A stretch of 64,000 bases of DNA from an uncultured Bacilli bacterium (GTDB lineage: Bacteria; Bacillota_I; Bacilli_A; RF39; UBA660), in the NCBI GenBank assembly GCA_934168005.1, contig CAKPMN010000002.1:13876-77875 (forward strand). Reading direction: 5' to 3'. The first letter of the stretch is position 1. Each line of letters opens with the position of its first letter. Under the pieces are notes generated by a model. It was not told the origin of the DNA. It worked only from the letters and a program-made list of their open reading frames with translations, and ran no database searches. Positions 1,197 through 38,506 of this stretch are shown in pieces. A program made the position numbers and the translations under genes.

Positions 1197-1214
1197 GAAA
1201 AAGCTCTAAATAAT

Positions 1215-3524: not shown

Positions 3525-3587
3525 ATATGCCTCCTATATTCATACTAATATTTGTTTGTCTAATACAATTATAAATCTTTTTTTACA

Positions 3588-3621
3588 AAAAAACTAATCT
3601 ATTATAAGATTAGTTAATACT
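3588..3621 (-). terminator. Rho-independent terminator hairpin downstream of tRNA-His (minus strand); copy B of the duplicated 34-bp element
   Basis: Same stem AACTAATCT-loop-AGATTAGTT with a single loop substitution (c/t). Followed by T-run on minus strand. Confidence 0.6.
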
Positions 3622-3626
3622 CAATA

Positions 3627-3703
3627 TGGGGCGCTCTGTGGGGATCGAACCCACGCATGCCTGAGTCACAGTCAGGTGTGTTAACCGCTTCACCAAGAAC
3701 GCC
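3627..3703 (-). tRNA. tRNA-His (anticodon GTG)
   Basis: Reverse complement gives a cloverleaf: acceptor GGCGTTC.../...GCGCC-CCA, anticodon loop CTGTGAC, T-loop GGTTCGATCC. Confidence 0.8.
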
Positions 3704-3787
3704 ATTTCAAATACATACATATTTTAACAAGATATTTAAGATTTTGCAACCTTTTTTTTAAATATATATAAATTAAGTAAATTGCCT

Positions 3788-3817
3788 ATACGCAAATTTA
3801 CTATAAACCATATGATA
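3788..3817 (+). promoter_or_regulatory. Possible sigma-K-type sporulation promoter upstream of cotJB (AC ... CATATGATA)
   Basis: CATA-N3-TA -10-like element at 3809-3817 with AC about 17 bp upstream, ahead of the cotJB RBS GAGGAGG. Confidence 0.25.
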
Positions 3818-3836
3818 ATCTGAGGAGGAAAAAAGT

Positions 3837-4280
3837 ATGTATCAATACCCAAATGCAAATATAATAGATTATTATAATTATACAAACAATAATTATAATA
3901 AACCAAATTATTCAGAAGATGCAAATGCATCAAAATTATATGATCCATATCAAGGATTTATACGAGGAAATATGTTTCCAAATTTATATAATGGATATAA
4001 AATAAGTAATCCAATAAATATAGAACCAAAATCAGAAAAAGAGGAAATGTTAATATATTTAGACTATTTAGCTTTTGCTGCTCATGATATTAATCTATAT
4101 CTAGATTTATATCCAAAAGATAAAGATATGTTAGAAGCTTTCTCTATGTATAGAATAGAAGCAGATAAGGTAAGAAAACAATATGAAAAAAAATATGGTC
4201 CATTAGAGGTAAATAGTGAAGCAAATACTGTTTATCCTTGGGCATGGGATAATAAACCATGGCCTTGGGAAAAGATATAG
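3837..4280 (+). CDS. cotJB: Spore coat protein CotJB
   Basis: CotJB-like core (LAFAAHDINLYLDLYP, YPWAWD). Overlaps and precedes the cotJC-like gene. N/Y-rich N-terminal extension. Confidence 0.75.
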   Translation: MYQYPNANIIDYYNYTNNNYNKPNYSEDANASKLYDPYQGFIRGNMFPNLYNGYKISNPINIEPKSEKEEMLIYLDYLAFAAHDINLYLDLYPKDKDMLEAFSMYRIEADKVRKQYEKKYGPLEVNSEANTVYPWAWDNKPWPWEKI

Positions 4281-4861
4281 GAGGTTATAATATGTGGAGT
4301 TATCAAAAAAGATTACAATACCCTGTAAATGTAAAGAATAAAGATTTAACTATGGCAAATGCTTTACTTGCTCAATATGGAGGACCTGATAGTGAACTTG
4401 GAGCATGTCTTAGGTACTTAAATCAGAGATATACAATGCCGGATGATAAAGGTAAAAGTTTATTAACAGATATAGCAACAGAAGAAATTGCTCATTTAGA
4501 AATGATTGGAAGTTTAATATACCAACTAATGCAAGGAGCAACTATAGAAGAATTAAAAAGCTTAAATATGAGTGGAACATTTGCAATGCACGATGGAGCA
4601 CTATTTTTAAGTGATCCTAATGGAGTTCCATTTACCACATCTTATATAGAAGCAACAGGAGATTTTATTGCTGATATAGAAAGTGATATGGCTGCAGAGC
4701 AAAGAGCTAGAGCAACTTATGAACACCTAATGGATATGACAAATGATGAAACAGTATTAGGGCCACTATCATTTTTAAGACAAAGAGAAATAGTGCATTA
4801 TCAAAGATTTAAAGAATTAAGAGATTATTATTTAGAAAGTAAGATCCAAAATACTAATTAA
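4259..4861 (+). CDS. cotJC: Spore coat protein CotJC (manganese catalase family)
   Basis: MWSYQKRLQYPVNVKNKD..AQYGGPDSELGACLRYLNQRYTMP..EIAHLEMIG, typical CotJC/Mn-catalase fold motifs. Confidence 0.85.
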   Translation: MALGKDIGGYNMWSYQKRLQYPVNVKNKDLTMANALLAQYGGPDSELGACLRYLNQRYTMPDDKGKSLLTDIATEEIAHLEMIGSLIYQLMQGATIEELKSLNMSGTFAMHDGALFLSDPNGVPFTTSYIEATGDFIADIESDMAAEQRARATYEHLMDMTNDETVLGPLSFLRQREIVHYQRFKELRDYYLESKIQNTN

Positions 4862-6289: not shown

Positions 6290-7945
6290 ATGAACAATAT
6301 TAGGTATATATCATTAAAAGAGTTAGATAATCAGATTAATAATTTAAAAATAGATAGTAAAAATCCGATAAGAATATTGATAAACAAATATAAAGTAGTA
6401 AAAAAACAAAGAGAAAGAATCTTAAATAATAAAAAATATATAGAACAAAAAGTAATGGAAAATAAAGCGTTATTAGAAAATATAAAAGGTTGTAGATTAG
6501 ATAAAGAACAAACAAAAGCAATAATAATAGAAGAAGATAGTTGTCTTATAATAGCTGGAGCAGGTTCTGGAAAAACTCTAACTATGCTTGGGAAAATAAA
6601 ATATTTAATAGAAGTAAAAAAAATAGATCCATCAAAAATATTATGTTTATCATTTACTAATGCTATAACTGAGGATTTAAAAGAAGCAATAAGAGAAGAA
6701 ATAAATGTAGAAATGAATGTGTTAACTTTTCATAAACTTGGTTTAAAAGTATTAAAAGAAAACAATGTGAATGTAAAAATAATAGAAGAAAAAGAACTAA
6801 TAAATATAACAGAAAACCATGTAAAAAAATTGAATAAAAATGAAGTATCAAAATATTTTAAAACAGAATTGGATCTAGAAAAACTTATATTAACTTTTAT
6901 AAATTTGTATAAATCTGGAGAATACAAAGACTTAAAAGAAATAAGCAACAAAATAGAAACTGAAAAAAATAGATTTATTAAAAAAAGAAATAAGTATGTA
7001 TTTAAAATAATAACAGATATATACAATATATATCAAAAAAAATTAGAAATGGAAGAAAAAATTGATTTTAATGACATGATAAATGAAGCATCATCACTAA
7101 TAGAAGAAGGATATAATTACCCTAAATATGATTACATAATAGTAGATGAATATCAAGATACATCATATATTAGATATAAGTTATTAAATTTAATAAAAGA
7201 AAAAAACAACTGCCCTATCTTGGCTGTTGGAGATGATTGGCAATCAATATATAGATTTACAGGATGTAATATAGAAATGTTTATAAATTTCAAGAAATAT
7301 TTTAAATATAGTTATATTACCAAAATCCAAACAACATATAGAAATCCCCAAGAATTAATAGATATAGCAGGACTTTTTGTTATGAAAAATCCAAATCAAT
7401 ATAAGAAAAATTTAAAATCAAATAAGAGTTATAATAAACCAATAAAAGTATTTCTCTATGAGTCAGAAGAAGAAATAGATTATATACTAAAAGAAATACC
7501 AAAAGATAGAAAAAGAATCCTTTTATTAGGGAGAAATAATAACGATTTTAAAGATATCAACATAAAAGATAATAGAGTAGAAAAAATGACAGTTCATAAG
7601 TCGAAAGGATTACAATGTGATACGGCAATAATAATAAATCTAAAAAACAGTATAAATGGGTTTCCAAATCAAATGGTAGATGACATTATATTTAAATACC
7701 TATTAAAACAAGATATATATCCATTCGAAGAAGAAAGAAGATTATTCTACGTAGCATTAACAAGAACTAAAAATGAAGTATATCTTTTTTCTCCAAAAAA
7801 TAATCAATCTATTTTTGTAAAAGAACTAATTACATCATTTGAAAATAAAATAGAAATATTATCAAAAAATAATTATTGTCCTCTATGCAAAAATAGATAT
7901 ATTAATAATAAGTGTCCCATTTGTAAAAAGAAAAATATGTTATAA
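6290..7945 (+). CDS. Compact UvrD/Rep/PcrA-family SF1 helicase with C-terminal CxxC-N7-CxxC zinc ribbon
   Basis: Motif I AGAGSGKT, motif II IIVDEYQD, motif III VGDDWQSIYRFTG, motif V TVHKSKGLQCD, motif VI YVALTRTK. Terminal CPLCKNRYINNKCPICKK. Confidence 0.7.
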   Translation: MNNIRYISLKELDNQINNLKIDSKNPIRILINKYKVVKKQRERILNNKKYIEQKVMENKALLENIKGCRLDKEQTKAIIIEEDSCLIIAGAGSGKTLTMLGKIKYLIEVKKIDPSKILCLSFTNAITEDLKEAIREEINVEMNVLTFHKLGLKVLKENNVNVKIIEEKELINITENHVKKLNKNEVSKYFKTELDLEKLILTFINLYKSGEYKDLKEISNKIETEKNRFIKKRNKYVFKIITDIYNIYQKKLEMEEKIDFNDMINEASSLIEEGYNYPKYDYIIVDEYQDTSYIRYKLLNLIKEKNNCPILAVGDDWQSIYRFTGCNIEMFINFKKYFKYSYITKIQTTYRNPQELIDIAGLFVMKNPNQYKKNLKSNKSYNKPIKVFLYESEEEIDYILKEIPKDRKRILLLGRNNNDFKDINIKDNRVEKMTVHKSKGLQCDTAIIINLKNSINGFPNQMVDDIIFKYLLKQDIYPFEEERRLFYVALTRTKNEVYLFSPKNNQSIFVKELITSFENKIEILSKNNYCPLCKNRYINNKCPICKKKNML

Positions 7946-8301: not shown

Positions 8302-8979
8302 ATGAAAATTCAACAAAAGCTGTATCAAAGATTAACGACAGTAGTAGTCTTATCAACAGCTATATTATGTGCTGTATTTGCATCATCACATAAAGATTAT
8401 ACTTATTCAATGCAAGACCTAAAAGAAGCATCGACAACAGAACAAGAAGACTTGCCCTCGTCGATAGAAATAGAAAAACAAATAAGAAATAAGGTTGAAA
8501 CATTAATATCAGATAGAAAAGCTCAAGATGAAGCCGAATATCAAGAATACCTAGCAAGTTTGACTGTATATGATGGACTTACAATGGATGAATTAGCCGA
8601 AAAGTTAGAAAAAAATTTAAATTCAACTTTAGATGGAACAGGAAGAATATTTGCAGAGCGATCTATAGAACTTGGATTAGACCCATATTTAGCCGTTTCA
8701 ATAGTCTTATTAGAAACAGGATGTAATTGGGAATGCAGTCAATTAGTAAAACAATGTTATAACGTTGGAGGTATAAAAGGCTCACCAGGATGTTTTGGAG
8801 GTTCTTACAAGAAATTTTCTTCACTAGAAGAAGGAATAACAAGTTATTTAAACATATTGTATAAAAATTATTATTCAAAAGGACTTACAACGCCAGAGTT
8901 AATGAACCCTAAATATGCTGAAAGTAAAACATGGGCTCAAAAAGTTAATAAGTATATAGAAAAAATAAAAGCAAGCTAA
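8302..8979 (+). CDS. Secreted mannosyl-glycoprotein endo-beta-N-acetylglucosaminidase-domain protein (glucosaminidase family peptidoglycan hydrolase)
   Basis: N-terminal signal/TM. Glucosaminidase-like core LDPYLAVSIVLLETGCNWECSQLVKQCYNVGGIKG. Confidence 0.65.
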   Translation: MKIQQKLYQRLTTVVVLSTAILCAVFASSHKDYTYSMQDLKEASTTEQEDLPSSIEIEKQIRNKVETLISDRKAQDEAEYQEYLASLTVYDGLTMDELAEKLEKNLNSTLDGTGRIFAERSIELGLDPYLAVSIVLLETGCNWECSQLVKQCYNVGGIKGSPGCFGGSYKKFSSLEEGITSYLNILYKNYYSKGLTTPELMNPKYAESKTWAQKVNKYIEKIKAS

Positions 8980-9059
8980 TTGCTTTTTTTTGTGAAAAAA
9001 AATGAATTTTGTTGAAAAGAAATACTAAATTTGTTAGAATTATTTAAGGAGGAGTTAAT

Positions 9060-9653
9060 ATGGCAGAAAAAAAAGTAAAAACAACAAAATCAGTATCAAG
9101 TAATCAAAACGTTAATATAAGAGAAAATACAACAAATGAATTAAATACAGAAATATTAAATAAAATATTAATTTGTCTATATGCGCTAATAGTAATATTA
9201 GTAGTTAATACAGCAATAATATTACTAAAAAATAATACAGTAACAAAAGACTCAACAACAGAAGAACAAGAAACAACAGAGTATGATGTTAGTATGTTTA
9301 CAAAAGTTACTGCTGATAACTTAAAAGAGGCAATTTCAAAGGACGAAGCACAAATAGTATATGTAGGAAGATCAACTTGTGGATACTGTGTAAAATTCTT
9401 ACCTGTACTACAACAAGCACAAAAAGATTATAAATATACTACTTTATATCTAGATATAACAACAGTTACTACAACTGAACAACAAAATAAGATTTTGGAA
9501 CTTGATAATGAAGATAAATTTTTAAGTGAAAACTTTGGAGGAACTCCAATGGTTCTACTAGTAAAAGATGGAAAAATAGTAGATACATGGATGGGATATT
9601 CTGAATATTCAACATATGCTACATGGCTTGAAAAAAATGGATTTACTAAATAG
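9060..9653 (+). CDS. Membrane-anchored thioredoxin-fold protein with CxxC (CGYC) active site
   Basis: N-terminal TM helix. VYVGRSTCGYCVKFLP thioredoxin motif. Similar to bacteriocin-transport-accessory-type thioredoxins. Confidence 0.6.
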   Translation: MAEKKVKTTKSVSSNQNVNIRENTTNELNTEILNKILICLYALIVILVVNTAIILLKNNTVTKDSTTEEQETTEYDVSMFTKVTADNLKEAISKDEAQIVYVGRSTCGYCVKFLPVLQQAQKDYKYTTLYLDITTVTTTEQQNKILELDNEDKFLSENFGGTPMVLLVKDGKIVDTWMGYSEYSTYATWLEKNGFTK

Positions 9654-9667
9654 TAAATCTTTTTTTA

Positions 9668-10207
9668 TTGAAAAATAATAAGAAAATTGATATTATAAGC
9701 TTGGTGATAAACGTGAATGGTATAAAAAGAATAGAAAATTTAATATATATAGTTATCTTTCTGTTAATTATAAATATTTTCGCTACTATTATAAAAAACA
9801 ATAGCGTGCAAACATCTCAAGGAATAAATTTTGACACATCAATGTTTAAAACTATAAATCTAAAGGATTTAGAAAGTTATATAAATGAAGAAAATTATAA
9901 AGTATTGGTAATAGGAAAAAATAACTGTGAATATACAATAGAAATGCTGCCAATATTAAGACAGGCCCAAGCTAACTATAATTATGAAACCTTATATGTA
10001 GATCAAAATAGTATAACAGAAGATGACAAAAATGTACTACTTAGATATGATGATGAAACAAAATTCATAGAGGAATACATAAATACAACTCCCCTAATAA
10101 TAGTTTTTAAAGATAATAGAATGGTAGATACTTGGGTTGGTTACCAAGAATATTCAGTATTTGAAAAGTTTTTGACAGGATTAGGAATAGAAAAAAAAGA
10201 AAATTAA
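9668..10207 (+). CDS. Membrane-anchored thioredoxin-fold paralog with degenerate active site (CEYT instead of CxxC)
   Basis: Collinear similarity to the preceding ORF (VLVIGKNNCEYTIEMLPILRQAQ.., DTWVGYQEYS). Second Cys replaced by Thr. Confidence 0.55.
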   Translation: MKNNKKIDIISLVINVNGIKRIENLIYIVIFLLIINIFATIIKNNSVQTSQGINFDTSMFKTINLKDLESYINEENYKVLVIGKNNCEYTIEMLPILRQAQANYNYETLYVDQNSITEDDKNVLLRYDDETKFIEEYINTTPLIIVFKDNRMVDTWVGYQEYSVFEKFLTGLGIEKKEN

Positions 10208-10268
10208 AAAAAGGTATTGCATAATTTTAAAATTTAATATATAATTAAAAGCGTTCTAGGAAGAACGC

Positions 10269-10357
10269 GCCTGAGTGGCGAAATTGGTAGACGCACAGGA
10301 CTTAAAATCCTGCGGGAGTCAAATCCCGTGCCGGTTCAAGTCCGGCCTTAGGCACCA
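10269..10357 (+). tRNA. tRNA-Leu (anticodon TAA), long variable arm
   Basis: Acceptor GCCTGAG/CTTAGGC-A-CCA, anticodon loop CTTAAAA, T-loop GGTTCAAGTCC. Confidence 0.85.
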
Positions 10358-10366
10358 TAGAAAATT

Positions 10367-10390
10367 AACGGACTTTGTCCGTTTTTCTTT
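10367..10390 (+). terminator. Terminator hairpin AACGGAC-TTTG-TCCGTT plus T-tract after tRNA-Leu
   Basis: Stem-loop followed by TTTTTC. Confidence 0.5.
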
Positions 10391-10427
10391 TGCAAAAATA
10401 CTTTTAATAAAAAAAATAAAAAAACTC

Positions 10428-10456
10428 TTGCCAAACAAAACACAACATGTTATAAT
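10428..10456 (+). promoter_or_regulatory. Sigma-A promoter (TTGCCA-17-TATAAT) for the tRNA-Ser...Pro transcription unit
   Basis: Near-consensus -35/-10 with 17-bp spacer, about 30 nt upstream of tRNA-Ser. Confidence 0.55.
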
Positions 10457-10487
10457 TTGTTATGTAATTGCCACAACTGGTGATATT

Positions 10488-10578
10488 GGAGAAATACCCA
10501 AGTTCGGTTGAAGGGACCGGTCTTGAAAACCGGGAGGTCGGAAACGGCGCGGGGGTTCGAATCCCTCTTTCTCCGCCA
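10488..10578 (+). tRNA. tRNA-Ser (anticodon TGA), long variable arm
   Basis: GGAGAAATACCCAAG... anticodon loop CTTGAAA... T-loop GGTTCGAATCC ... CTCCGCCA. Confidence 0.85.
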
Positions 10579-10587
10579 TTTAAATAT

Positions 10588-10664
<77 letters not shown>

Positions 10665-10665
10665 T

Positions 10666-10742
10666 GGTTCGTTAGTCTAGAGGCCTATGACGTCTGCCTG
10701 TCACGCAGAAGACCACGGGTTCGAATCCCGTACGAACCGCCA
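10666..10742 (+). tRNA. tRNA-Asp (anticodon GTC)
   Basis: Acceptor GGTTCGT/ACGAACC-G-CCA, anticodon loop CTGTCAC, T-loop GGTTCGAATCC. Confidence 0.85.
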
Positions 10743-10750
10743 TTTATTTT

Positions 10751-10826
<76 letters not shown>

Positions 10827-10866
10827 TTTATTTTTGATTAATATTACAATAATTGGTTTGGCAATT

Positions 10867-10943
<77 letters not shown>

Positions 10944-10946
10944 TAT

Positions 10947-11023
10947 CGGGAAATGGCTCAACTTGGTAGAGCACTTGGTTTGGGACCAAGGGGTTGCAGG
11001 TTCAAATCCTGTTTTCCCGACCA
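10947..11023 (+). tRNA. tRNA-Pro (anticodon TGG)
   Basis: CGGGAAATGGCTCAACTTGGTAGAGC, anticodon loop TTTGGGA, ...TTTCCCGACCA. Confidence 0.85.
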
Positions 11024-11033
11024 TTTAGAATTT

Positions 11034-11057
11034 AACGGATATAATCCGTTTTTTTTA
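11034..11057 (+). terminator. Terminator hairpin AACGGAT-ATA-ATCCGTT plus T8 after tRNA-Pro
   Basis: Stem-loop plus TTTTTTTT. Stem sequence related to the hairpin after tRNA-Leu. Confidence 0.55.
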
Positions 11058-11099
11058 TTGCAAAATCAAGTATATTTGGGTAAAATAATAGTATATATT

Positions 11100-11175
11100 G
11101 TTTACATAGCTCAGTTGGAAGAGCATTTCCCTCCGAAGGAAAAGGTCATCAGTTCAAATCTGATTGTAAACACCA
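11100..11175 (+). tRNA. tRNA-Arg (anticodon CCG)
   Basis: GTTTACATAGCTCAGTTGGAAGAGC, anticodon loop CTCCGAA, acceptor TGTAAAC-A-CCA. Own TTGCAA/TAAAAT promoter upstream. Confidence 0.75.
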
Positions 11176-11218
11176 TTGAAAATTAATCATTGTTTGACAA
11201 TAAGATAGTGGTGATAGT

Positions 11219-12295
11219 ATGACACAAGAATTAATAGTAAGAATAATTGGTATGATATTAGTACCATTTACAGTAGTTGTATGCTTTATTCCGTTTGTAA
11301 AAAAGATAGCATTTCAGATTAATGCAGTAGATACACCAAGAGGTGGAAGGCATATTCATAAAAAGATAACTCCAAAACTAGGAGGATTGGCTATATTTAT
11401 AGGATTCCTACTAGGATACATGATATTTGGTACTCATAGTGTACTAATGAATGCGGTATTAATAGGAAGTTTCATAATAATATTAACGGGTGTAATCGAT
11501 GACATAACCGAATTAACAGCTTTGCAACAGTTTATAGGACAAGTAGCAGCAGCGGCGGTATTAGTTTTCTATGGTGGCCTATCCATAAATGAACTAACCG
11601 CATTTGGGTTTAGAATAGATTTTGGAATCATATCACCTTTTGTAACTATGTTTTTTATAGTGGGATGCATTAATTGTATTAATTTAATAGATGGGCTCGA
11701 TGGTTTATCTGGAGGTATTAGTTCTATATACTTTTTAACAACAGGAATAATAGCTGTTATTCAACAAAAATCAGGATTAGACTTCATAATATCATTTATA
11801 ATGCTCGGTTCAACTCTTGGATTTCTTATATATAACTTTAATCCTGCAAGTATTTTTGCTGGTGACTGTGGATCTAATTTTATGGGATTTATGATTTCTG
11901 TAATAGCATTACTTGGATTTAAAAATGTTACATTGACTTCTTTATTTATACCACTTTTAATTATTGCTATTCCAATATTAGATACATTATTCGCAATAAT
12001 AAGACGAGCTCTTAAACATCAACCATTATTTAAAGGAGATAAATTTCATATTCATCATCAACTACTAAATAGAAATTTATCAGTTAAGACAACAGTTATA
12101 ATTATATATATAATAGATTCATTGTTCGCATTAGCGTCAATAGTTTATGTATTAAACGATAAATACCTTGGTTATTTTCTATATGGACTATTGTTATTAA
12201 TAGTAATAACTTTTGTTGCAAAAACAAATGTTGTATTTGATAGTGAAGACATAAAGAAAAAGATAAAAGAAAAAATTAGTAAAAAATCTGAGTAA
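11219..12295 (+). CDS. Glycosyltransferase family 4 undecaprenyl-phosphate GlcNAc-1-phosphate transferase (WecA/TagO/MraY-like)
   Basis: Polytopic membrane protein with NCINLIDGLDGL and DTPRGGRHIHKKITPKLGG motifs of the MraY/WecA family. Confidence 0.8.
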   Translation: MTQELIVRIIGMILVPFTVVVCFIPFVKKIAFQINAVDTPRGGRHIHKKITPKLGGLAIFIGFLLGYMIFGTHSVLMNAVLIGSFIIILTGVIDDITELTALQQFIGQVAAAAVLVFYGGLSINELTAFGFRIDFGIISPFVTMFFIVGCINCINLIDGLDGLSGGISSIYFLTTGIIAVIQQKSGLDFIISFIMLGSTLGFLIYNFNPASIFAGDCGSNFMGFMISVIALLGFKNVTLTSLFIPLLIIAIPILDTLFAIIRRALKHQPLFKGDKFHIHHQLLNRNLSVKTTVIIIYIIDSLFALASIVYVLNDKYLGYFLYGLLLLIVITFVAKTNVVFDSEDIKKKIKEKISKKSE

Positions 12296-12351
12296 TTCAG
12301 ATTTTTTTGTATATAAAAAGATAACTATCTCATAATAAAATAGGTGATAAT

Positions 12352-13074
12352 ATGGACTTTAATTTAGCGACATTTATGCAAGTAATACCACGAGGCTTAA
12401 TTTCTTTAATAACATTATTTTTTATTACAAAATTATTAGGAAAAAGACAAGTTTCAGAATTAAGTTTGTTTGATTATGTTATAGGAATATCAATTGGAAA
12501 TTTTGCTGCAGAAATAACTATCAATACCGACGTTCACTTAGCTAATGGTGTCTTTGCAGTTATATTATTTGGATTAGTTGCTTATATTGTGTCAAAATTG
12601 ACATTAAAAAGCGTATGGATGCGGAGAATAGTAAATGGTGTACCATCAATTCTTTTTGACAATGGAATGTTTATAACTAAAAATATGAAAAAAAATCATT
12701 TTGATGTAAATGATTTATTAGAAGAAGCTAGATTAAATGGTTATTTCAACATAGATGAAATTGAATGTGCAATATTAGAAACGAATGGAAAGGTTAGCTT
12801 CCTGCCAAAATCTCAAAACAAGCCAGTAACACAAAAGGATATGAAAATAAAATCAACTAAGAGTTGCTTATATGCAAATGTAATAATAGATGGAAAATAT
12901 ATGATTGATAATTTAAAAGAAATAAAAAAAGATAAAGGTTGGCTCGAATCAAAATTAAAAGCCAAGGGGTATAAATCCATAAAAAATATAGTATTAGCTA
13001 CAGTAGATAACCAAGACAAGATAATAATTTATGAACAAAAAAACTGTTCAAAAGTGTCAAGTATATTAGAATAA
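12352..13074 (+). CDS. DUF421 (YetF/YdfS-like) membrane protein
   Basis: N-terminal MDFNLATFMQVIPRGLISLITLFFITKLLGKRQVSELSLFDYVIGISIGNFAA pattern, as in B. subtilis YetF-type proteins. Confidence 0.65.
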   Translation: MDFNLATFMQVIPRGLISLITLFFITKLLGKRQVSELSLFDYVIGISIGNFAAEITINTDVHLANGVFAVILFGLVAYIVSKLTLKSVWMRRIVNGVPSILFDNGMFITKNMKKNHFDVNDLLEEARLNGYFNIDEIECAILETNGKVSFLPKSQNKPVTQKDMKIKSTKSCLYANVIIDGKYMIDNLKEIKKDKGWLESKLKAKGYKSIKNIVLATVDNQDKIIIYEQKNCSKVSSILE

Positions 13075-18108: not shown

Positions 18109-18756
18109 GTGATTTATAATATAATAAAAAACATTGGTGATGTTATGGAAGCAAAAGAATTAACAGAAGAAATTAAAACTTTACAAAAAGGAGATATTCT
18201 ATTTGTAATAGGAGAAAACAGTATAGGAAAGACAACTTTATTTAGCAAAGTAGATAAAAACATTATTTGTAAAGAATTAAATAAAAATACTGCTGTAAAA
18301 AATCTTATAAAAAATGATGAAATAATCAAAGAATTTAATATAGAAGATTTACTGGAAAGAAAAATTAATACTCTATCAACAGGAGAAAAGACACTAATAA
18401 CAATATTATCAAATCTAGAAAATGAGATTTTAATAGTCGATGACATATTGAAAAACTTAGATAGTAAAACAAAAGAAAAACTACTAAAGAAAATAAAAAG
18501 GTTAAGAAAAGATAAAATAACTATTTTTTTAACAACAACATCAGATGACATACTTTTTGGAAATAAAACATTGATAATGTCAAAAGAAAAGTATTTACTA
18601 CTAGATACAAAGAAAATATTAGAAGAAAAGAATTTTAAAGAAGCAAATATCACATTACCATTTGTAATAGATTTATCAAAGAAACTGTCCTATTATGGAT
18701 TAGTAAATAAAAATTATTATGAAATAGATAAGTTGGTGAATGACTTATGGAAATAA
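18109..18756 (+). CDS. ABC-ATPase-like protein with degenerate signature/Walker B (LSTGEK; ILIVDD); true start possibly the internal Met at about 18145
   Basis: Walker A GENSIGKTT intact. Signature LSTGEK instead of LSGGQ. No H-loop His recognisable. Confidence 0.5.
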   Translation: MIYNIIKNIGDVMEAKELTEEIKTLQKGDILFVIGENSIGKTTLFSKVDKNIICKELNKNTAVKNLIKNDEIIKEFNIEDLLERKINTLSTGEKTLITILSNLENEILIVDDILKNLDSKTKEKLLKKIKRLRKDKITIFLTTTSDDILFGNKTLIMSKEKYLLLDTKKILEEKNFKEANITLPFVIDLSKKLSYYGLVNKNYYEIDKLVNDLWK

Positions 18757-22362: not shown

Positions 22363-23025
22363 ATGTCAAAAAAACTATATATTTCTTTTTTTATTGTATT
22401 AATAATTTTTCAATTCATAGTAATAAAATCATTTAAAGCTTTAGAAAAAAATGATTTTCCACTATTAGGTATAACTATTTATTTAGATCCAGGTCATGGT
22501 GGAATTGATAGTGGTACAACATATAAAGATATATACGAAAAAGATATTAATTTATCAATATCAAAAAAAATAAGAACCTATTTAGAAAAGGAAGGCGCAA
22601 CAGTATATTTAACTCGAGATGGAGATTACGATATATCGGTACCAGGATCAACCAATAAAAAAAGAAGCGATCTAACAAAAAGAAGCGAATTAATAAATAG
22701 GTCAAAATGTAATTTATTTATATCAATTCACCAAAATTCAGATACATCATCAACATGGAGAGGGCCACAAGTATTTTATACACATGATTACAATAAAAAA
22801 ATAGCAGAATTATTTCAAGAAGAAATGAATAAGAAATTAAAAGGTGATAGAAAAGCTAAAGAAGTAAATTCGTTATTTTTACTTAATAAAATTAATGTTA
22901 AAGGAATACTCTTAGAAACAGGTTTCTTAAGTAATAGTCAGGATAGATATTTATTAAGACAAGAAGAATATCAAAATAAAATAGCATTTGTTGTAACTAA
23001 CACGGTAAAAAAGATATTTAATTAA
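22363..23025 (+). CDS. cwlD: Germination-specific N-acetylmuramoyl-L-alanine amidase CwlD
   Basis: N-terminal TM, IYLDPGHGGIDSG, FISIHQNS, LLETGFLSN (Amidase_3). Conserved synteny after rpsI. Confidence 0.8.
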   Translation: MSKKLYISFFIVLIIFQFIVIKSFKALEKNDFPLLGITIYLDPGHGGIDSGTTYKDIYEKDINLSISKKIRTYLEKEGATVYLTRDGDYDISVPGSTNKKRSDLTKRSELINRSKCNLFISIHQNSDTSSTWRGPQVFYTHDYNKKIAELFQEEMNKKLKGDRKAKEVNSLFLLNKINVKGILLETGFLSNSQDRYLLRQEEYQNKIAFVVTNTVKKIFN

Positions 23026-23107
23026 AATAAAAGTGAAGCTTATGTGAAATTTGATAAAATTTATATAAAGTGTGGTATAATTACTTTGATGATAAGGAGA
23101 GATCTCT

Positions 23108-24040
23108 ATGTCAAAGAAGGTATTTAGAAGTTTAGACGAGCAAATTGAAATTTTAAAGTCTAAAGGTTTAGTAATAGAAGATGAGCAATTAGCAAAAGAA
23201 ATATTATTTCGCGAAAATTACTTTTTTATAAGTGGATATCGCCACTTATTCATGCGTTCGTTTCATGATAGACAGTTTATAGAAGGAACAACATTTGATG
23301 AACTATATACAACATTTTTATTTGATAGAAAAATAAGAAATATAATGTTTCAGTATATATTAGTTGTTGAAAACAATGTTAAATCAATAGTTAGTTATCA
23401 ACTATCAAAAAAATATGGTATAAAAGAGAAAGACTATTTAAATCCAAAAAACTTTACTCAAGATAGATTAAAGCAAAGACAAGTTCACGATATAATAGAA
23501 AAAATGAAAAGACAAATCAGAGTTAATGGTAGACAACACACAGCAACAATGCACTACATAGATAATTATGGTTATATACCATTATGGATATTAGTTAAAG
23601 TCTTATCATTTGGAATATTATCAGAATTTTATAACATATTAAAAAGTGAAGATGCACTAGCTATAGCTGATATATACAACATAGAAATAGAAGAGATGAG
23701 TATATATTTATCAATACTTGCAAATTTTAGAAATTTATGTGCTCATGAAGACATTTTATATGATCATAGAACACAAAGAGAAATTCCAGATACAAAATAT
23801 CATCATTTTTTAAATATAGAAATGACAGATGATCATTATAATTATGGGAAAAATGATTTGTTTGCCGTTATCATTATAATGAAAAGAATGCTAACAAAAG
23901 ATGAATTTAATGACTTTTTATTCCAAATAGGATATGAAATAGATATTCTAGAAAGTTCTATAAAAAGTGTCCCAGCATCACTTATCTTAAACAAAATAGG
24001 ATTTCCTGATAACTGGAGACAAATAACAGAAATAGATTAG
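23108..24040 (+). CDS. Abi_2-family abortive-infection protein (AbiD/AbiF-like)
   Basis: N-terminus SLDEQIEILKSKGLVIEDEQLAKEILFRENYFFISGYRHLF matches the Abi_2 family signature. Confidence 0.75.
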   Translation: MSKKVFRSLDEQIEILKSKGLVIEDEQLAKEILFRENYFFISGYRHLFMRSFHDRQFIEGTTFDELYTTFLFDRKIRNIMFQYILVVENNVKSIVSYQLSKKYGIKEKDYLNPKNFTQDRLKQRQVHDIIEKMKRQIRVNGRQHTATMHYIDNYGYIPLWILVKVLSFGILSEFYNILKSEDALAIADIYNIEIEEMSIYLSILANFRNLCAHEDILYDHRTQREIPDTKYHHFLNIEMTDDHYNYGKNDLFAVIIIMKRMLTKDEFNDFLFQIGYEIDILESSIKSVPASLILNKIGFPDNWRQITEID

Positions 24041-24048
24041 GAGGAAAT

Positions 24049-25161
24049 ATGAAGGATAAGAAAAAAATAGTAATCATTATAATAATATTAATTCTAATAC
24101 TAACAGGATATTATGTTTACAAAAAAGACTTGTTAAGTAAACTCTTTAAAGAAAAAGTAACAACAGTAACAAATAAAGAAGTTACAGTAACAGATAAAGG
24201 AATAGCAGACGCAGTAGACAAGCTATATGATGCTACTGTAATAGTTGAAGTCGGAAACAATAGCGATCAAATATCAGGATGGGGAAGTGGTTTTGTATAT
24301 AAGACAGACTCAAAATACGGGTACATATTAACAAACCATCATGTCATTGAAGATGCGAGATATATAAAAGTAGTAAGTACAAATGAAAAAGAAGTAGAAG
24401 GAACACTTATAGGAAGCGATAAATATATGGATGTTGCAGTAGTAAGGGTTCCATTAGATAGTGTACAAAAGGTCGCATCAATTGGAAAAAGTGAGGATTT
24501 AAGACTTGGAGATACTGTATTTACAGTTGGAACACCAGTAAGTACAAACTATTCATTTACAGTAACAAGAGGAATATTAAGTGGTAAAAACAGATTATGT
24601 GAAATGTCATCTTCAAATAATCAGTTATATCAATATAGTCAAGAATCTTGGTATATAAATTTACTTCAAATAGATGCATCAATAAATGGAGGTAATTCAG
24701 GAGGCCCATTAGCTAACTCAAATGGAGAAGTAGTAGGTATTACAAATAGTAAATTAACAAGCTATTATTCTAGCTCTACAATTGAAAATATGGCTTTTGC
24801 AATTCCAATAGAAGATGCAATAAATGTAGCAGAACAATTATTGGAAGATGGAGAAGTAACAAGACCATTACTTGGCGTTTCAACAGCAGAAGTTGATGCT
24901 GCTGTATCTGCTGGATTAATATCAAATTCTAATTCTAAGGGAGCAGTAGTTGTAAAAGTAGCTGACGATTCAGTCGCAGATAAAGCTGGATTAGAAGAAG
25001 GGGATATTATCTTAAAATTAGGAGACTATGAAGTAACTAATACTAAGTATTTAAAATATTATTTATATCGTTATAATGTTGGTGAAACTGTTAAAATAAC
25101 ATACCAAAGAAATGGTAAATCAAAAACAGTAGACGTAAAATTAACAGATGAAGCAAAATAA
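24049..25161 (+). CDS. htrA: HtrA/DegP-family serine protease with C-terminal PDZ domain
   Basis: N-terminal TM. Catalytic H (TNHHVIE), D, S (GNSGGPL). PDZ-like GLEEGDIILKLGD. Confidence 0.85.
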   Translation: MKDKKKIVIIIIILILILTGYYVYKKDLLSKLFKEKVTTVTNKEVTVTDKGIADAVDKLYDATVIVEVGNNSDQISGWGSGFVYKTDSKYGYILTNHHVIEDARYIKVVSTNEKEVEGTLIGSDKYMDVAVVRVPLDSVQKVASIGKSEDLRLGDTVFTVGTPVSTNYSFTVTRGILSGKNRLCEMSSSNNQLYQYSQESWYINLLQIDASINGGNSGGPLANSNGEVVGITNSKLTSYYSSSTIENMAFAIPIEDAINVAEQLLEDGEVTRPLLGVSTAEVDAAVSAGLISNSNSKGAVVVKVADDSVADKAGLEEGDIILKLGDYEVTNTKYLKYYLYRYNVGETVKITYQRNGKSKTVDVKLTDEAK

Positions 25162-33856: not shown

Positions 33857-36800
33857 ATGAAAAAGGGTAAAAAAGGATTTGTAGTAAGTGCGGTATTGTA
33901 CCCATTACTAGTATTGTTTCTAGCGATAATCATGGGATTACTTTCCATGACAGATACAAGAAAAAGAATATTAGATAAAATGAAGTTAGAAATAACAGAT
34001 AATATATTTGATGATGCAGCATGCTCATGCGATACAATACTAGCAAAATTAAACTATATTATCGCAAATGGAACTGGAGGATCTGGTGGAGACACAGGAT
34101 CATATGCATATAACAAATTAACACTAAATGTAAAAACATATGAAGCATATAGTGACTTTCCGGTAGTAGGAAACATAATAGGAGATATCGCAGTATTGTC
34201 AACAACCCCAATAAAAAACTATTATGTATCAACAAGTGTACCAAAAAGTCCACAAGAAGGAACAGTATGGATAGTACAAGATAATACAAGTAATTATTAT
34301 GTAACATCAGATTGGAATAGGATTGGTATAAGTTATGTAATGCAGTATGAGAATAGTAAATGGGTATTAAAAAAATCATATGTTTATAACGGTGAATCAT
34401 GGACAATGTTATACTATGTTAATTTAAAGAATGGATATGTAGATTTAACAAAATCAGATATAAATGCTGAGATAACAAAAACATATGACTATACAGGAGA
34501 ATACCAAACATTTAAAGCAGTATTTTCAGGATACTACAAGATAGAGTTATGGGGAGCTCAAGGTGGAAGCTATTCATCTAGTGTAGTTGGTGGATTAGGA
34601 TCATATACGTCTGGAGAAATATACTTAGATGCTGGTGAAATTTTATATGTATATATAGGTGGACAAGGAAAAAATCCATCAGGACTAGGTCCTGATTATA
34701 CAGGAGGAACCGGTGGCTGGAATGGTGGCGGTGACGGAATAAGAAATGCTGGTAACAATGCAAACAAAGCAGCAGAAGGTGGCGGTGGAGCAACAGATAT
34801 AAGACTTATTGGAACATCAGATAAGAAAAATTGGGATGAGTTTGATTCGTTAAAAACTAGAATTATGGTTGCGGCAGGAGGCTCAGGATCAGCATATTAT
34901 GTAGATGCAGCAACAAATGGAACAGCCGGAGGCGGATTAAATGGATACGAAGGAATGTGTGATGGAGGTGCATGTTCAACAACACTTGAATCAAAATATG
35001 GTGGAATAGGTGCAACACAAACATTAGCTGGGTATAGTCCATATTCAAAGATATCAACAATGGGTGGCTTTGGATATGCTGGTAGTGGTGCAAAATCAAA
35101 TTATGATGCTACTGGTGGAGGCGGTGGTTACTACGGAGGCGGAGGAGCTTTTGCCGGTGGTAATGGTAGAACAATCGGAGGATCAGGCTCAAGTTATATT
35201 TCAGGATTTAATGGTTGTAATTCTATAAAAGAAGAAAGCAGTGCAGATAATATAATACATACAGGAAGTGCATATCACTATAGTGGCAAATATTTTTTAA
35301 ATTCTATAATGGTTGACGGAAAAGGAAGTTCATGGGGAGAAGCATATGCAACAGCAACCAAAAATCAACCAACTTATGATGGTAAGTCAACTCAAATAGG
35401 AAATAGTGGAAATGGCTATGCAAAAATTACACTAGAGACAGTTGAGGTAATATCTAAATCTGATATCGAGAAAAAACAGACAGAAGTAGAAAATAAATGG
35501 ATATACAATTATTCAGGAACTTATCAAATATTTACAGCTCCAACAAGTGGATACTATAAAGCTGAATTGTGGGGAGCCCAAGGAGGAAGCTATTCTTCTA
35601 GTGTGATAGGAGGATATGGTTCATATACAACAGGTGATATATATCTAAATAAAAACGAAAAATTGTATATATATGTAGGCGGACAAGGAACAAATCCGCT
35701 AGGTCTAGGTACTGACTATTCCGGAGGAACCGGAGGTTGGAATGGTGGTGGAGATGGACTTAGAAATTCAGGCAACACTGCAAACAAAGCAGCAGAAGGT
35801 GGCGGTGGAGCAACAGATATAAGACTTGTATCTACATCAAGTCTAGGTAATTGGCTTGATTTTGAAAGTTTGAAATCACGAATCATGGTTGCAGCTGGAG
35901 GCTCTGGTTCAGCATATTATGCAGATGCAGCAACAAATGGATCTGCCGGAGGTGGAATAAATGGATATGATGGAATGTGTGATGGTGGAGCTTGTTCGGC
36001 ATCATCCGAATTAAATTACGGTGGAATAGGTGCTACACAAGCCCTAGCAGGATATAGTCCAGTGTCAAAAACTAGTACAATAGGAGGATTTGGATACGCC
36101 GGAAGTGGAACTCCATCAAATTATGACGCTACTGGCGGAGGCGGTGGTTACTATGGAGGTGGCGGAGCATTTGCTGGAGGAAATGGTAGAACTGTTGGTA
36201 GTACAGGTTCAAGTTATATATCAGGATTTAATGGCTGCAATTCAATAGCAGAAGAGAGTACATCTACAAATATTTTACACACAGGGAGTGCATATCACTA
36301 TAATGGATACTATTTTAAATCTGGCGTTATGATAGATGGAAAAGGTCAATCTTGGAACGAGGCTTATGCAAAAACATCACCATTACAACCAAATTATGAC
36401 AATTCTGGTTCTATGACAGGAAATAGTGGACATGGATATGCTAAAATAACTAAAATTTCGACAGAAGAAAAATCTTCAGATGAAATTAGTGGCTATGAAG
36501 AAAAAAATAATAGTATATATGTATATAACTATTCAAGTACATATCAGACTTTCATAGCCAGTAAATCAGGATATTATAAGATAGAACTATGGGGAGCTCA
36601 AGGTGGAAATTATAATACGAATGTAATTGGTGGAAAAGGTGCATATACATATGGAAAAATTTACTTGGCAAAAGGTCAAAAACTATACGTATATGTAGGA
36701 GGTCAAGGAGAAAATCCAAGAGGTTTAGGAACAAATTATTCCGGAGGAAGCGGTGGCTGGAATGGCGGTGGAGATGGTATGAGAAATTCAGGAAACTCAA

Positions 36801-38506
36801 ACAATAAATTTGCCGGAGGCGGAGGTGGCGCTACGGATATACGTTTGGAAGTAACGCCAAGTTTAAGCAGTTGGTCAGATTTTAATAGTATAAAATCAAG
36901 AATTATGACTGCATCAGGTGGATCCGGAGCGGCTTATTATGCAGAAGCAGCAACAAATGGAACAGCCGGTGGCGGATTAACTGGGTATGAAGGAATGTGT
37001 GACGGTGGATCATGTACATATTCAAGCGATCTTAGATATAGTGGTCTTGGCGCAACACAAACATTAGCTGGTTATAGTCAAGTTTCACAAACCGCGACAA
37101 ATGGCGGCTTTGGTTATGGGGGAAGTGGTTCCCAATCAAACTACGATGCTACCGGAGGTGGTAGTGGTTACTATGGAGGCGGAGGAGCATTTTCTGGTAG
37201 TAATGGTAGAACAACCGGAGGATCTGGTTCAAGTTATATTTCAGGATTTACAGGATGTAATTCTATAGCAGGCGAATCAACTGCATCAAACCTTTTACAT
37301 ACAGGAAGTGCATATCACTATAGTGGATATTATTTTACTGATGCTATTATGATAGACGGAAAAGGTTATAAGTGGCAATCAGGAAAAGCATTATCTGCTA
37401 TTAACCAGCCAACATACGATGGAACTAGTACAATGGTTGGAAATAGTGGAAATGGATATGCTAGAATAGAATTTATCGAGGCTGCTAATGTTTCAGAAGA
37501 AACATTAAATAATGATAAATTGAATGCAGAAAAAAATTGGAATTTTACTTATTCAAAAAGTTACCAAGAATTTACAGTTCCAAAAACAGGAACATATAAA
37601 ATAGAACTATGGGGAGCCCAAGGAGGAAGTTATACAACATCAGTTATAGGTGGATTAGGATCATACACATCAGGTCAAATTTCTCTTACTAAGGGAACAA
37701 AATTATATGTATATGTTGGAAGTCAAGGAACAAATCCATTAGGTTTAGGTGATACTTATTCTGGAGGAACCGGTGGCTGGAATGGCGGAGGCGATGGTCT
37801 AAGAAATACAAATACAAGCAATGACAAAGCAGCAAATGGCGGAGGTGGTGCAACTGATGTTAGAACGATAAAGACATCATCCCTTTCAACATGGAATACA
37901 AGAAATTCTATAATTTCGAGAATTATGGTCGCAGCCGGAGGATCTGGCTCTGCATATTATGCAGATGCAGCAACAAATGGCTCTGCCGGAGGTGGATTAA
38001 AAGGGTACAATGGATATTGTGATGCAACAGAATGTACTACATCTGGTGGAAGTGGAGGAACACAAATTGCTGCAGGTTCAGCATCTTACAATGCAACAGC
38101 TACATCATTAACAAAAGGAGATTTTGGCTATGGAGGAAATGGTGCAAAATCTAATTACAATGCAACCGGAGGCGGAAGTGGTTGGTATGGTGGAGGTGGA
38201 GCATACTCAACTGGAAATGGTAGAACAACTGGAGGATCTGGATCAAGTTATATTTCAGGATTTGCAGGATGTATAGGTGTAAATTCATCAGGTAATCCAC
38301 TCGTAACAAAGTATTCAAAATTAGAAGATTCAATTTCAAATACAGGATATAAGTTTACAAATTCCATAATGATAGATGGAAAAGGATATTCATGGAATCA
38401 GACATCTGCAGTATCTGTCGTTAAACAACCAACTCCGGATGGTACATCAACTCAAACAGGTCAAAGTGGAAACGGTTATGCCAAGATAACATACCTAGGA
38501 GCATAA
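33857..38506 (+). CDS. Membrane-anchored giant glycine-rich repeat protein (1549 aa): N-terminal TM/signal anchor, about 200-aa unique region, then four 340-aa Gly-rich repeats
   Basis: Single uninterrupted ORF with AGGGAGG RBS. Each repeat carries YYKIELWGAQGG, GGTGGWNGGGDG, AAEGGGGATDIRL, RIMVAAGGSGSAYY, CDGGACS, ATGGGGGYYGGGGAF, GNSGNGYAKIT. Confidence 0.7.
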   Translation: MKKGKKGFVVSAVLYPLLVLFLAIIMGLLSMTDTRKRILDKMKLEITDNIFDDAACSCDTILAKLNYIIANGTGGSGGDTGSYAYNKLTLNVKTYEAYSDFPVVGNIIGDIAVLSTTPIKNYYVSTSVPKSPQEGTVWIVQDNTSNYYVTSDWNRIGISYVMQYENSKWVLKKSYVYNGESWTMLYYVNLKNGYVDLTKSDINAEITKTYDYTGEYQTFKAVFSGYYKIELWGAQGGSYSSSVVGGLGSYTSGEIYLDAGEILYVYIGGQGKNPSGLGPDYTGGTGGWNGGGDGIRNAGNNANKAAEGGGGATDIRLIGTSDKKNWDEFDSLKTRIMVAAGGSGSAYYVDAATNGTAGGGLNGYEGMCDGGACSTTLESKYGGIGATQTLAGYSPYSKISTMGGFGYAGSGAKSNYDATGGGGGYYGGGGAFAGGNGRTIGGSGSSYISGFNGCNSIKEESSADNIIHTGSAYHYSGKYFLNSIMVDGKGSSWGEAYATATKNQPTYDGKSTQIGNSGNGYAKITLETVEVISKSDIEKKQTEVENKWIYNYSGTYQIFTAPTSGYYKAELWGAQGGSYSSSVIGGYGSYTTGDIYLNKNEKLYIYVGGQGTNPLGLGTDYSGGTGGWNGGGDGLRNSGNTANKAAEGGGGATDIRLVSTSSLGNWLDFESLKSRIMVAAGGSGSAYYADAATNGSAGGGINGYDGMCDGGACSASSELNYGGIGATQALAGYSPVSKTSTIGGFGYAGSGTPSNYDATGGGGGYYGGGGAFAGGNGRTVGSTGSSYISGFNGCNSIAEESTSTNILHTGSAYHYNGYYFKSGVMIDGKGQSWNEAYAKTSPLQPNYDNSGSMTGNSGHGYAKITKISTEEKSSDEISGYEEKNNSIYVYNYSSTYQTFIASKSGYYKIELWGAQGGNYNTNVIGGKGAYTYGKIYLAKGQKLYVYVGGQGENPRGLGTNYSGGSGGWNGGGDGMRNSGNSNNKFAGGGGGATDIRLEVTPSLSSWSDFNSIKSRIMTASGGSGAAYYAEAATNGTAGGGLTGYEGMCDGGSCTYSSDLRYSGLGATQTLAGYSQVSQTATNGGFGYGGSGSQSNYDATGGGSGYYGGGGAFSGSNGRTTGGSGSSYISGFTGCNSIAGESTASNLLHTGSAYHYSGYYFTDAIMIDGKGYKWQSGKALSAINQPTYDGTSTMVGNSGNGYARIEFIEAANVSEETLNNDKLNAEKNWNFTYSKSYQEFTVPKTGTYKIELWGAQGGSYTTSVIGGLGSYTSGQISLTKGTKLYVYVGSQGTNPLGLGDTYSGGTGGWNGGGDGLRNTNTSNDKAANGGGGATDVRTIKTSSLSTWNTRNSIISRIMVAAGGSGSAYYADAATNGSAGGGLKGYNGYCDATECTTSGGSGGTQIAAGSASYNATATSLTKGDFGYGGNGAKSNYNATGGGSGWYGGGGAYSTGNGRTTGGSGSSYISGFAGCIGVNSSGNPLVTKYSKLEDSISNTGYKFTNSIMIDGKGYSWNQTSAVSVVKQPTPDGTSTQTGQSGNGYAKITYLGA
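34450..38506 (+). repeat. Four in-frame tandem repeats with exact 1020-bp period inside the Gly-rich gene
   Basis: Identical 47-mer caaacaaagcagcagaaggtggcggtggagcaacagatataagactt at 34761 and 35781. Homologous blocks at 36801 and 37821. tggggagc(t/c)caagg at 34550, 35570, 36590 and 37610. Confidence 0.85.

Follow-up and report, generated by a model that had tools for sequence, protein, structure and literature searches.

An AbiD/AbiF-family HEPN ribonuclease gene probably resident in the htrA operon of uncultured gut Bacilli

Is a gene of an abortive-infection family that lies among housekeeping and sporulation genes a recently acquired defence gene, or is it an old resident of the chromosome? 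This question is raised by a 64,000-nucleotide stretch of DNA from an uncultured Bacilli bacterium (contig CAKPMN010000002.1 of assembly GCA_934168005.1), hereafter referred to as the window, in which a 310-aa Abi_2 or AbiD/AbiF HEPN protein is encoded at positions 23108–24040 of the plus strand. Genes for such proteins are by default treated as defence or toxin genes, and the original prediction, made from the sequence of the window, took this one, here called abi, for a defence gene that lies within a conserved block of housekeeping and sporulation genes. We arrive at a different reading, to which we assign a probability of about 0.5: abi would be an ancestral, vertically inherited chromosomal gene for an AbiD/F HEPN ribonuclease (RNase) in the htrA operon, and not an inserted mobile defence gene. 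A literature search turned up neither a link between Abi_2 and htrA nor a description of a domesticated AbiD/F (HEPN Abi) protein.

The open reading frame (ORF) of abi starts with an ATG, was recovered at exactly the coordinates first proposed and is supported by profile and fold matches. The N-terminal string that had been quoted for it, SLDEQIEILKSKGLVIEDEQLAKEILFRENYFFISGYRHLF, corresponds to Abi residues 8–48. Its own ribosome-binding site (RBS) was present as well, namely the Shine-Dalgarno sequence AAGGAGAG at 23094–23101 (+), 6 nt 5′ of the ATG at 23108, and the placement of abi between a CwlD-like Amidase_3 gene and an HtrA-type Trypsin_2 and PDZ gene was borne out. The gap had further been described as flanked by 80 bp, which is accurate for the upstream side with 82 bp to cwlD, but not for the downstream side, where just 8 bp separate abi from htrA. 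The abi stop codon TAG (24038–24040) runs straight into GAGGA, the RBS of htrA (24041–24045, +), which begins at the base right after the stop and is followed by the htrA ATG at 24049. This 8-nt intergenic spacer speaks for an operon rather than for a free-standing insert.

The arrangement was followed through relatives of the window, which are throughout metagenome-assembled genomes (MAGs) or metagenome contigs. They belong to an uncultured, low-GC lineage of gut and rumen Bacilli with one named member, Candidatus Aphodocola excrementigallinarum (Bacilli incertae sedis). A word-indexed protein search with Abi returned at least 8000 significant proteins, and the best 120 of these were nearly all 308–324 aa long and 69–100% identical. 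Two looked-up loci, P0012 (82% identity) and P0061 (72%), show the same order rplM-rpsI-(methyltransferase)-cwlD-abi-htrA, with htrA beginning 9 nt after abi, and a third looked-up locus from a Bacilli MAG contains cwlD, one minus-strand gene and abi. A genome scan was then anchored on the neighbouring methyltransferase gene (MT) with one genome per species, so that loci without abi could appear, and cwlD was sought within 7 kb. Among the resulting 80 loci, all from MAGs and most labelled uncultured, cwlD was found in 16, and abi lay directly 3′ of it in 16 out of 16; htrA was the next gene after abi in 11 of these. In a metagenome scan anchored on Abi itself (80 loci, 59–74% identity), htrA was located directly downstream of abi in 46 of the 57 loci with enough downstream sequence (81%), and cwlD upstream of abi in 35 of 62 (56%). 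An adjacency of cwlD and htrA without abi was seen in none of the genome or metagenome loci examined. Where cwlD is not adjacent, usually either two inserted genes separate it from abi (L130, L135 and others) or it is absent, and the abi-htrA pair persists; L148–L154 read rpsI-abi-htrA without cwlD, and L102 reads MT-abi. The spacing between abi and htrA ranges from a short overlap up to 15 nt in the loci with listed ORFs, and the junction TAG/TAA-GAGG-N4-6-ATG is common to 12 of the 18 loci inspected. With regards to this organization, abi and htrA are predicted to be co-transcribed as a two-gene operon that is kept in approximately 80% of the orthologous loci.

The rate at which abi evolves fits this picture of a resident gene. 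Identity to the window protein amounts to 63–82% for Abi in the genome and looked-up loci, to 59–74% in the metagenome loci and to up to 87% among database matches. The corresponding values in the genome and looked-up loci are 78–89% for RpsI, 62–83% for the methyltransferase, 48–58% for TruA, 40–61% for CwlD and 43–46% for HtrA. Pairwise Abi divergence correlates with that of RplM (r=0.74), RpsI (0.60), HtrA (0.66), CwlD (0.62) and TruA (0.70; Mantel p=0.001 each), and on average Abi diverges 1.4 times as much as the ribosomal proteins and 0.73–0.78 times as much as CwlD, HtrA and TruA. The ratio of nonsynonymous to synonymous substitution rates (dN/dS, omega; NG86, 49 moderately close pairs) was 0.03–0.14 for abi, the exception being the low-coverage contig L113 in two pairs, and these values are rough since dS is approximately 1 or higher in most pairs; the same pairs gave 0.08–0.40 for htrA, 0.06–0.33 for cwlD and 0.04–0.18 for the methyltransferase gene. 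When 1.84 billion representatives at 50% identity were searched exhaustively, the Abi_2 family comprised 5931 clusters at E≤1e-3. The syntenic clade accounts for one full-length 50% representative (63%, 454 bits) and fragments, and the next match drops to 42% and 230 bits. The slow rate, the ribosomal-like divergence and the single 50% cluster argue for a constrained, vertically inherited orthologue rather than a diversifying defence gene, and abi therefore appears to be an old, slowly evolving chromosomal gene under strong purifying selection.

Expression of abi was considered next to its conservation. A predicted extended −10 element of the sigma-A type, TGgTATAAT, is located at 23073–23081 (+), 26 nt before the abi ATG, and a weak −35-like TTGATA at 23051–23056 (+) is separated from it by a 19-nt spacer. 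A generic promoter scan gave no enrichment and, because of this spacer, overlooked the extended −10, and a direct motif count was used instead. Of 95 distinct orthologous loci, 84 have a perfect TGnTATAAT in the 120 nt that precede codon 6, at a median distance of 34 nt from that codon, as compared to approximately 4 of 95 expected by chance from a background of 0.35 per kb. Nothing beyond the −10 element is conserved upstream across the orthologous loci, and no terminator-like hairpin is predicted between cwlD and htrA. The conserved sigma-A-type extended −10 is thus the putative promoter of abi.

The short leader bears on a second component that would be expected of a toxin of this family. 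Characterised AbiD/F systems consist of two components, in which an upstream non-coding RNA (ncRNA) antitoxin occupies the HEPN site (PMC12373285, PMC13064643). The upstream RNA of the Clostridioides difficile protein AbiFCd is approximately 100–130 nt long, contains two abiF motifs and ends in a terminator (PMC12373285), and the upstream RNA region of the lactococcal AbiD/F genes is more conserved than the gene (PMC13064643). The leader predicted for abi is approximately 20 nt and leaves no room for the ~100-nt ncRNA antitoxin of AbiF systems. The abiF RNA motif RF03085 had no match at E≤10 in the 7-kb region from 20 to 27 kb, in the whole window or in 5 orthologous loci; phage phiC2, used as a control, gave 37.6 and 19.5 bits just upstream of its abiF. 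An RNA element embedded within abi was not indicated either, as synonymous variation among 97 orthologues was not significantly suppressed (minimum window −0.186 bits vs. a permutation 5th percentile of −0.209). Membership in the AbiF type III toxin-antitoxin (TA) systems is consequently not established for this locus, the defining upstream RNA having been looked for and not found.

The protein itself is an ordinary member of its family; what is not ordinary is its apparently antitoxin-less, slowly evolving core status in a predicted htrA operon. The Abi_2 assignment held up in the profile search that had been proposed as its check, where PF07751 scored 139.1 bits against a cut-off of 25.6 (E=2.6e-40) over Abi residues 31–219, equivalent to all profile positions (1–184 of 184), and it is far beyond chance. 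The best PADLOC model was AbiD (E=4.5e-62, 208 bits), aligned over residues 2–308 with model positions 3–276 of 277. A profile built from ten orthologues matched one Protein Data Bank (PDB) sequence, 8vz6_A, annotated as "Abi family protein" (E=1.2e-20). The AlphaFold2 model of Abi, with a mean confidence (pLDDT) of 81.4 and a predicted template modelling score (pTM) of 0.81, led to the same entry, since the sole significant PDB neighbour in Foldseek was 8vz6_A, the PbAbiF dimer bound to its ncRNA (E=4.6e-9), with template modelling (TM) scores of 0.72/0.74 over 321 columns and the whole length. A fold search of BFVD with the Abi model returned just one 128-aa fragment (E=4.8e-3). To AbiF of the C. 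difficile phage phiC2, Abi is 27% identical over 304 columns from end to end (E=4e-31).

The catalytic motif is intact. In the alignment of orthologues, the HEPN motif (R-phi-xxx-H, with phi being N, H or D) corresponds to R208-N-L-C-A-H213, encoded at 23729–23746 (+). Within RN.CAHE, each of the letters R, N, C, A, H and E is kept in at least 98% of 136 orthologues, and so are 111 of the 310 Abi positions. The motif aligns with RNSCCH of 8vz6_A. Mutation of R202/H207 in AbiFCd or of R210/H215 in PbAbiF abolishes toxicity or activity (PMC12373285), and R208/H213 of Abi correspond to these residues. On each point examined, the protein is a member of Pfam Abi_2 and of the AbiD/F protein group, and the gene can be regarded as a genuine AbiD/AbiF-family HEPN ribonuclease gene, with the RNase activity predicted from homology.

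Two segments of the AlphaFold2 model have a pLDDT below 50, residues 215–223 (window 23750–23776) and 241–249 (23828–23854). The former, DILYDHRTQ, directly follows the HEPN motif and is nearly invariant in the 136 orthologues. Conserved yet unmodelled, this loop beside the active site may bind RNA or a partner.

Signs of mobility were sought in composition, in neighbouring genes and in databases of mobile elements. The GC content of abi (0.25) is similar to that of cwlD (0.26) and other non-ribosomal neighbours, so that a compositional anomaly is absent. Homologues from phages (75 records) and plasmids (319 records) were at best ≤32% identical, with no close copies among them, and a scan of IMG/VR with the orthologue alignment, for which narrow patterns were used, found no relative of the clade. 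On the 5′ side, the window encodes TypA/BipA, ABC-F, EcfA-like ATPases, TruA, L13, S9, an rRNA-type methyltransferase and CwlD; the genes 3′ of abi encode HtrA, an Amidase_3-LysM protein, a SleB-like Hydrolase_2 protein, a pilin-like protein, a CofD-family (YvcK-type) protein, WhiA, L9 and DnaB. None of these window neighbours is a defence or mobile-element gene. The immediate upstream neighbour (22363–23025, +) is a CwlD-like N-acetylmuramoyl-L-alanine amidase gene whose product has an N-terminal hydrophobic membrane anchor (Amidase_3 PF01520, E=3.7e-45). Its best NCBIfam match is TIGR02883 spore_cwlD with 190 bits, which is under the equivalog cut-off of 221.55, and the next-best match reaches 65 bits. 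Downstream, htrA (24049–25161, +) encodes a membrane-anchored serine protease of the HtrA/DegP type with Trypsin_2 (PF13365, E=2.8e-28) and PDZ (PF13180, E=4.8e-18) domains and a TIGR02037 score of 262.8 bits. A defence island was also considered and rejected, as PADLOC gave partial generic matches alone on ten neighbours (ABC ATPase, MTase and trypsin domain). Neither a mobile defence gene nor a defence island was thus recognised at this locus. The claim of a defence gene set into a conserved block is contradicted by the presence of abi in 16 of 16 loci, by its ribosomal-like divergence and by the lack of mobility signs.

The nearest relatives outside the clade have a different setting. They occur here and there in taxa that are not related (Natranaerovirga, Anaeromusa, Bacilli MAGs), and they themselves diverge steeply (72, 56, 49 and 46% over the first few matches). 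Of four outgroup loci looked up, P0275 (42%) follows a gene for a CHAP and LysM endolysin, P0277 (35%) follows Amidase_2 endolysin and holin genes, P0446 lies among ChW, SocA_Panacea and HTH genes beside two tRNA genes, and P0498 lies amid unrelated chromosomal genes. Three of the four are therefore in a prophage or mobile-element context, and all four have upstream spacers of approximately 290–540 nt. A prophage-end Abi_2 gene was likely captured and fixed in the ancestor of the lineage.

The surroundings of the block vary among relatives. In L005 (ERZ1310643 NODE_425, positions 1–4100), whose Abi is identical to that of P0061, a prophage end with an RVT_1 reverse transcriptase, XhlA, a holin and a CHAP/CW_7 endolysin lies directly 5′ of the methyltransferase gene; it occupies the truA-rplM-rpsI position of other strains (L004 and L006 compared), and the cwlD-abi-htrA block is intact. 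The region just 3′ of htrA is variable and holds candidate defence or mobile genes in relatives, where the window has the Amidase_3-LysM gene instead. L001 and L002 encode an AEP-TOTE/ResIII/DEAD helicase (787 aa) and a SLFN_AlbA_2/HATPase_c_4 protein (557 aa) there (8800–12868), and L004 and L005 encode TnpV and a type I restriction-modification HsdM (10307–12933). In a sub-clade (L110, L118, L121, L130, L135, L136, L138), two large genes for proteins of approximately 455–475 aa and 830–1060 aa, without a match in the window, lie upstream of abi (~300–4650 per locus). A cwlD-like gene is found 5′ of the inserted pair in L130, L135, L136 and L138, and htrA follows abi except in L118. Mobile Abi_2 genes were also seen next to tRNA genes. 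Enterococcus phage IME197 (L169) carries a tRNA at 1267–1340, approximately 150 nt upstream of its Abi_2 gene, where AbiF systems hold the ncRNA, and an element in a Bacilli MAG (L174) has two tRNAs just 3′ of its Abi_2 gene (6331–6486), probably an integration site.

The original prediction implies that abi is a mobile defence gene which entered the cwlD-htrA junction recently, and it finds backing in the family name, the PADLOC AbiD match, the gene's own promoter and RBS, and the fact that the flanks take up mobile or defence DNA in L005, L004 and L001. However, all 16 cwlD-bearing genomes have abi at this site, as do dozens of metagenome loci with Abi identities as low as 59%, the gene diverges in step with the ribosomal proteins, its GC content equals that of its neighbours, the 8-bp htrA junction is shared, and there are neither close phage, plasmid or viral copies nor an empty cwlD-htrA junction among the loci seen. 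The prediction had itself named presence at this position in all relatives as the outcome that would speak against it, and this is essentially what was found (16/16 genome loci; 46/57 with htrA). A recent insertion is effectively refuted by that measure and hardly credible. The best reading instead is a host-fixed HEPN RNase, presumably co-expressed with HtrA, for which defence and host physiology both remain candidate present roles. Abi would be an all-alpha, AbiF-like protein that forms a homodimer, in which R208 and H213 of both chains make up a composite HEPN site cleaving RNA; dimer and composite site are modelled on the homologues PbAbiF (8VZ6) and AbiFCd. A prophage-type Abi_2 toxin would have been fixed and then re-purposed in the host lineage, where the RNase would act on a conserved host RNA substrate or a conserved partner. 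Being expressed constitutively together with HtrA, a protease of envelope protein quality control, it may, for instance, be an RNase that is coupled to stress or arrests growth. It would have ceased to be mainly a mobile abortive-infection module, with phage resistance as a possible secondary or original function. Such a host-serving role would explain both the housekeeping-like evolution and the fact that no cis antitoxin is needed. From the genomic context and the evolutionary rate, we consider a toxin that was fixed, re-purposed and now serves the host alongside HtrA to have close to an even chance, or slightly less. A more specific version, in which Abi is a domesticated, constitutive, antitoxin-less host RNase functionally coupled to HtrA as a bacterial counterpart of Ire1/RNase L, is rather doubtful.

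Several points weigh against a host-serving gene of this kind. The evidence for the host function consists of conservation and gene neighbourhood, and all characterised family members are abortive-infection or toxin proteins, which together with the intact catalytic motif makes a defence role entirely possible. Furthermore, both cwlD and abi are missing within 7 kb of the anchor in 64 of the 80 MT-anchored loci, and omega is a rough estimate for the reason given above. RF03085 is also absent from eight mobile or outgroup Abi_2 loci (four from phages or plasmids and the four nearest outgroups), so that its absence alone is not diagnostic; the motif is confined to a subset of the Abi_2 family. 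An RNA antitoxin that has diverged or is encoded in trans may exist elsewhere in the genome, beyond the 64-kb window.

These points lead to a rival in which abi is a true abortive-infection or toxin module that is now a fixed part of the core genome, its product being a latent HEPN toxin killing or arresting infected cells. It would be restrained by a trans-encoded or divergent ncRNA, a cellular RNA, weak translation as in AbiD1 or the requirement for a phage trigger, and its htrA linkage would be an accident of the landing site. The full-length AbiD/F homology with an intact R-N-xxx-H motif, the toxicity of all characterised Abi relatives (PMC12373285, PMC13064643) and the prophage or mobile context of three of the four nearest outgroups are in its favour, and a TA arrangement is compatible with the data as the closest mobile relatives also have no recognisable abiF motif. 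Defence genes, on the other hand, tend to be patchily distributed, to evolve fast and to have other defence or mobile genes beside them. By contrast, abi is syntenic among relatives with RpsI 69–89% identical, evolves more slowly than truA, cwlD and htrA, has an omega of approximately 0.1 and forms a single 50% cluster. Constitutive co-expression rather than silent storage is favoured by the tight htrA junction and by a strong promoter that is conserved ~20 nt before the ATG, and the upstream region is unconserved except for the −10, unlike the AbiD/F upstream RNA, which is more conserved than the gene (PMC13064643). We regard a fixed toxin as a tentative alternative, behind the host-serving reading. 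A role in sporulation or germination, such as the degradation of mother-cell RNA together with the spore-cortex and mother-cell-lysis set (cwlD, amidase-LysM, SleB-like), is improbable. It would agree with the position of abi directly 3′ of cwlD in every cwlD-containing genome locus, with the Amidase_3-LysM and SleB-like Hydrolase_2 genes after htrA in the window and several relatives, and with prophage Abi_2 genes that also adjoin peptidoglycan amidases (P0275/P0277-type loci; PMC12373285). The conserved promoter, however, is an extended −10 of the sigma-A type and not a sporulation-sigma motif, and abi-htrA persists without a neighbouring cwlD (L148–L154; MT-abi in L102), both of which weaken such a role, and the linkage to htrA (81%) is stronger than that to cwlD (56%).

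If abi is a core gene of the htrA operon, defence censuses count one system too many in each genome of these abundant gut Bacilli, because PADLOC, and by expectation probably DefenseFinder-type pipelines too, would call an "AbiD system" in every genome of the lineage. It would also be a clean natural case of a prophage-type HEPN toxin that was fixed and possibly re-purposed by its host, and would raise the question of how an AbiF-like RNase with an intact active site is tolerated without the RNA antitoxin that its characterised relatives need. For this question, the clade supplies hundreds of natural Abi sequence variants.

Some further observations were made in the window and in the scanned genomes. 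A 1549-aa ORF at 33857–38506 (+) has as its sole Pfam match four stretches of the ALK/LTK glycine-rich domain PF12810 (E=1.6e-164), which is unusual for a bacterial protein, and its N-terminal ~1200 residues are without annotation. At the position of the first EcfA ATPase, a GTG-start ORF of 215 aa (18109–18756, +) shows a short P-loop match to ABC_tran alone (residues 24–46, 28.7 bits) and runs 10 nt into the following EcfA-like gene, which is intact; the ORF may represent an ATPase that is degenerate or truncated. The window also contains an eight-tRNA cluster at 10269–11172 (+), a lone tRNA at 3630–3702 (−) and an L31-Firmicutes ribosomal leader at 44572–44602 (+; 36.1 bits vs. a gathering score of 33.3). 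Finally, MAGs labelled Muribaculaceae (L023, L035, L054, L061, L083) or Actinomycetes (L032) carry a low-GC, Bacilli-type methyltransferase with 56–71% identity, which adjoins rplM-rpsI at 78–84% identity in L032 and L054. These Bacteroidota- or Actinomycetes-labelled MAGs look like mislabelled or chimeric bins.

For comparison with known systems, the AbiF type III TA systems (PbAbiF, 8VZ6, and the C. difficile prophage AbiFCd with its ncRNA RCd22) belong to the same family and share the fold over the whole length. AbiF of phiC2/AbiFCd and the window Abi have the N-terminal LDEQIxILKSxGL, the C-terminal IGFPxNW and an equivalently placed RNxCAH in common (PMC12373285). Unlike these systems, abi has neither RF03085 nor a long terminated leader, its predicted promoter being 26 nt from the ATG. 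It also differs from prophage and plasmid AbiF in its fixed chromosomal site in the htrA operon and its slow vertical evolution, whereas AbiF genes are patchy even within one species (PMC12373285). The lactococcal AbiD, AbiD1 and AbiD-like proteins resemble Abi as single HEPN proteins of approximately 300 aa, and AbiD is the best PADLOC model. Their genes are plasmid-borne, weakly transcribed and dependent on a conserved upstream RNA (PMC13064643), in contrast to the upstream region in the window, which is unconserved save for a strong −10; lactococcal and other plasmid homologues are ≤32% identical. Closest to abi outside the clade are the Bacillota Abi_2 genes at prophage ends (35–42%), which have the same length and domain and are also located just 3′ of a peptidoglycan hydrolase gene, but follow endolysin/holin or mobile genes and have upstream spacers of ~290–540 nt. 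AbiD/F is, moreover, the family from which Cas13 is thought to derive. A HEPN RNase paired with a protein-quality-control factor recalls Ire1, an analogy that serves as a lead and not as evidence. Unlike Ire1, the window Abi has no membrane or sensor domain. Precedents for HEPN RNases outside defence are the eukaryotic KEN domains of Ire1/RNase L, Las1 and Swt1 (Anantharaman et al. 2013, PMC3710099), and the same work groups Abi2 and Swt1 together. With regards to gene neighbourhoods, Saunier et al. remarked on an enrichment of translation and post-translational-modification genes downstream of abi_2 genes (PMC12373285).

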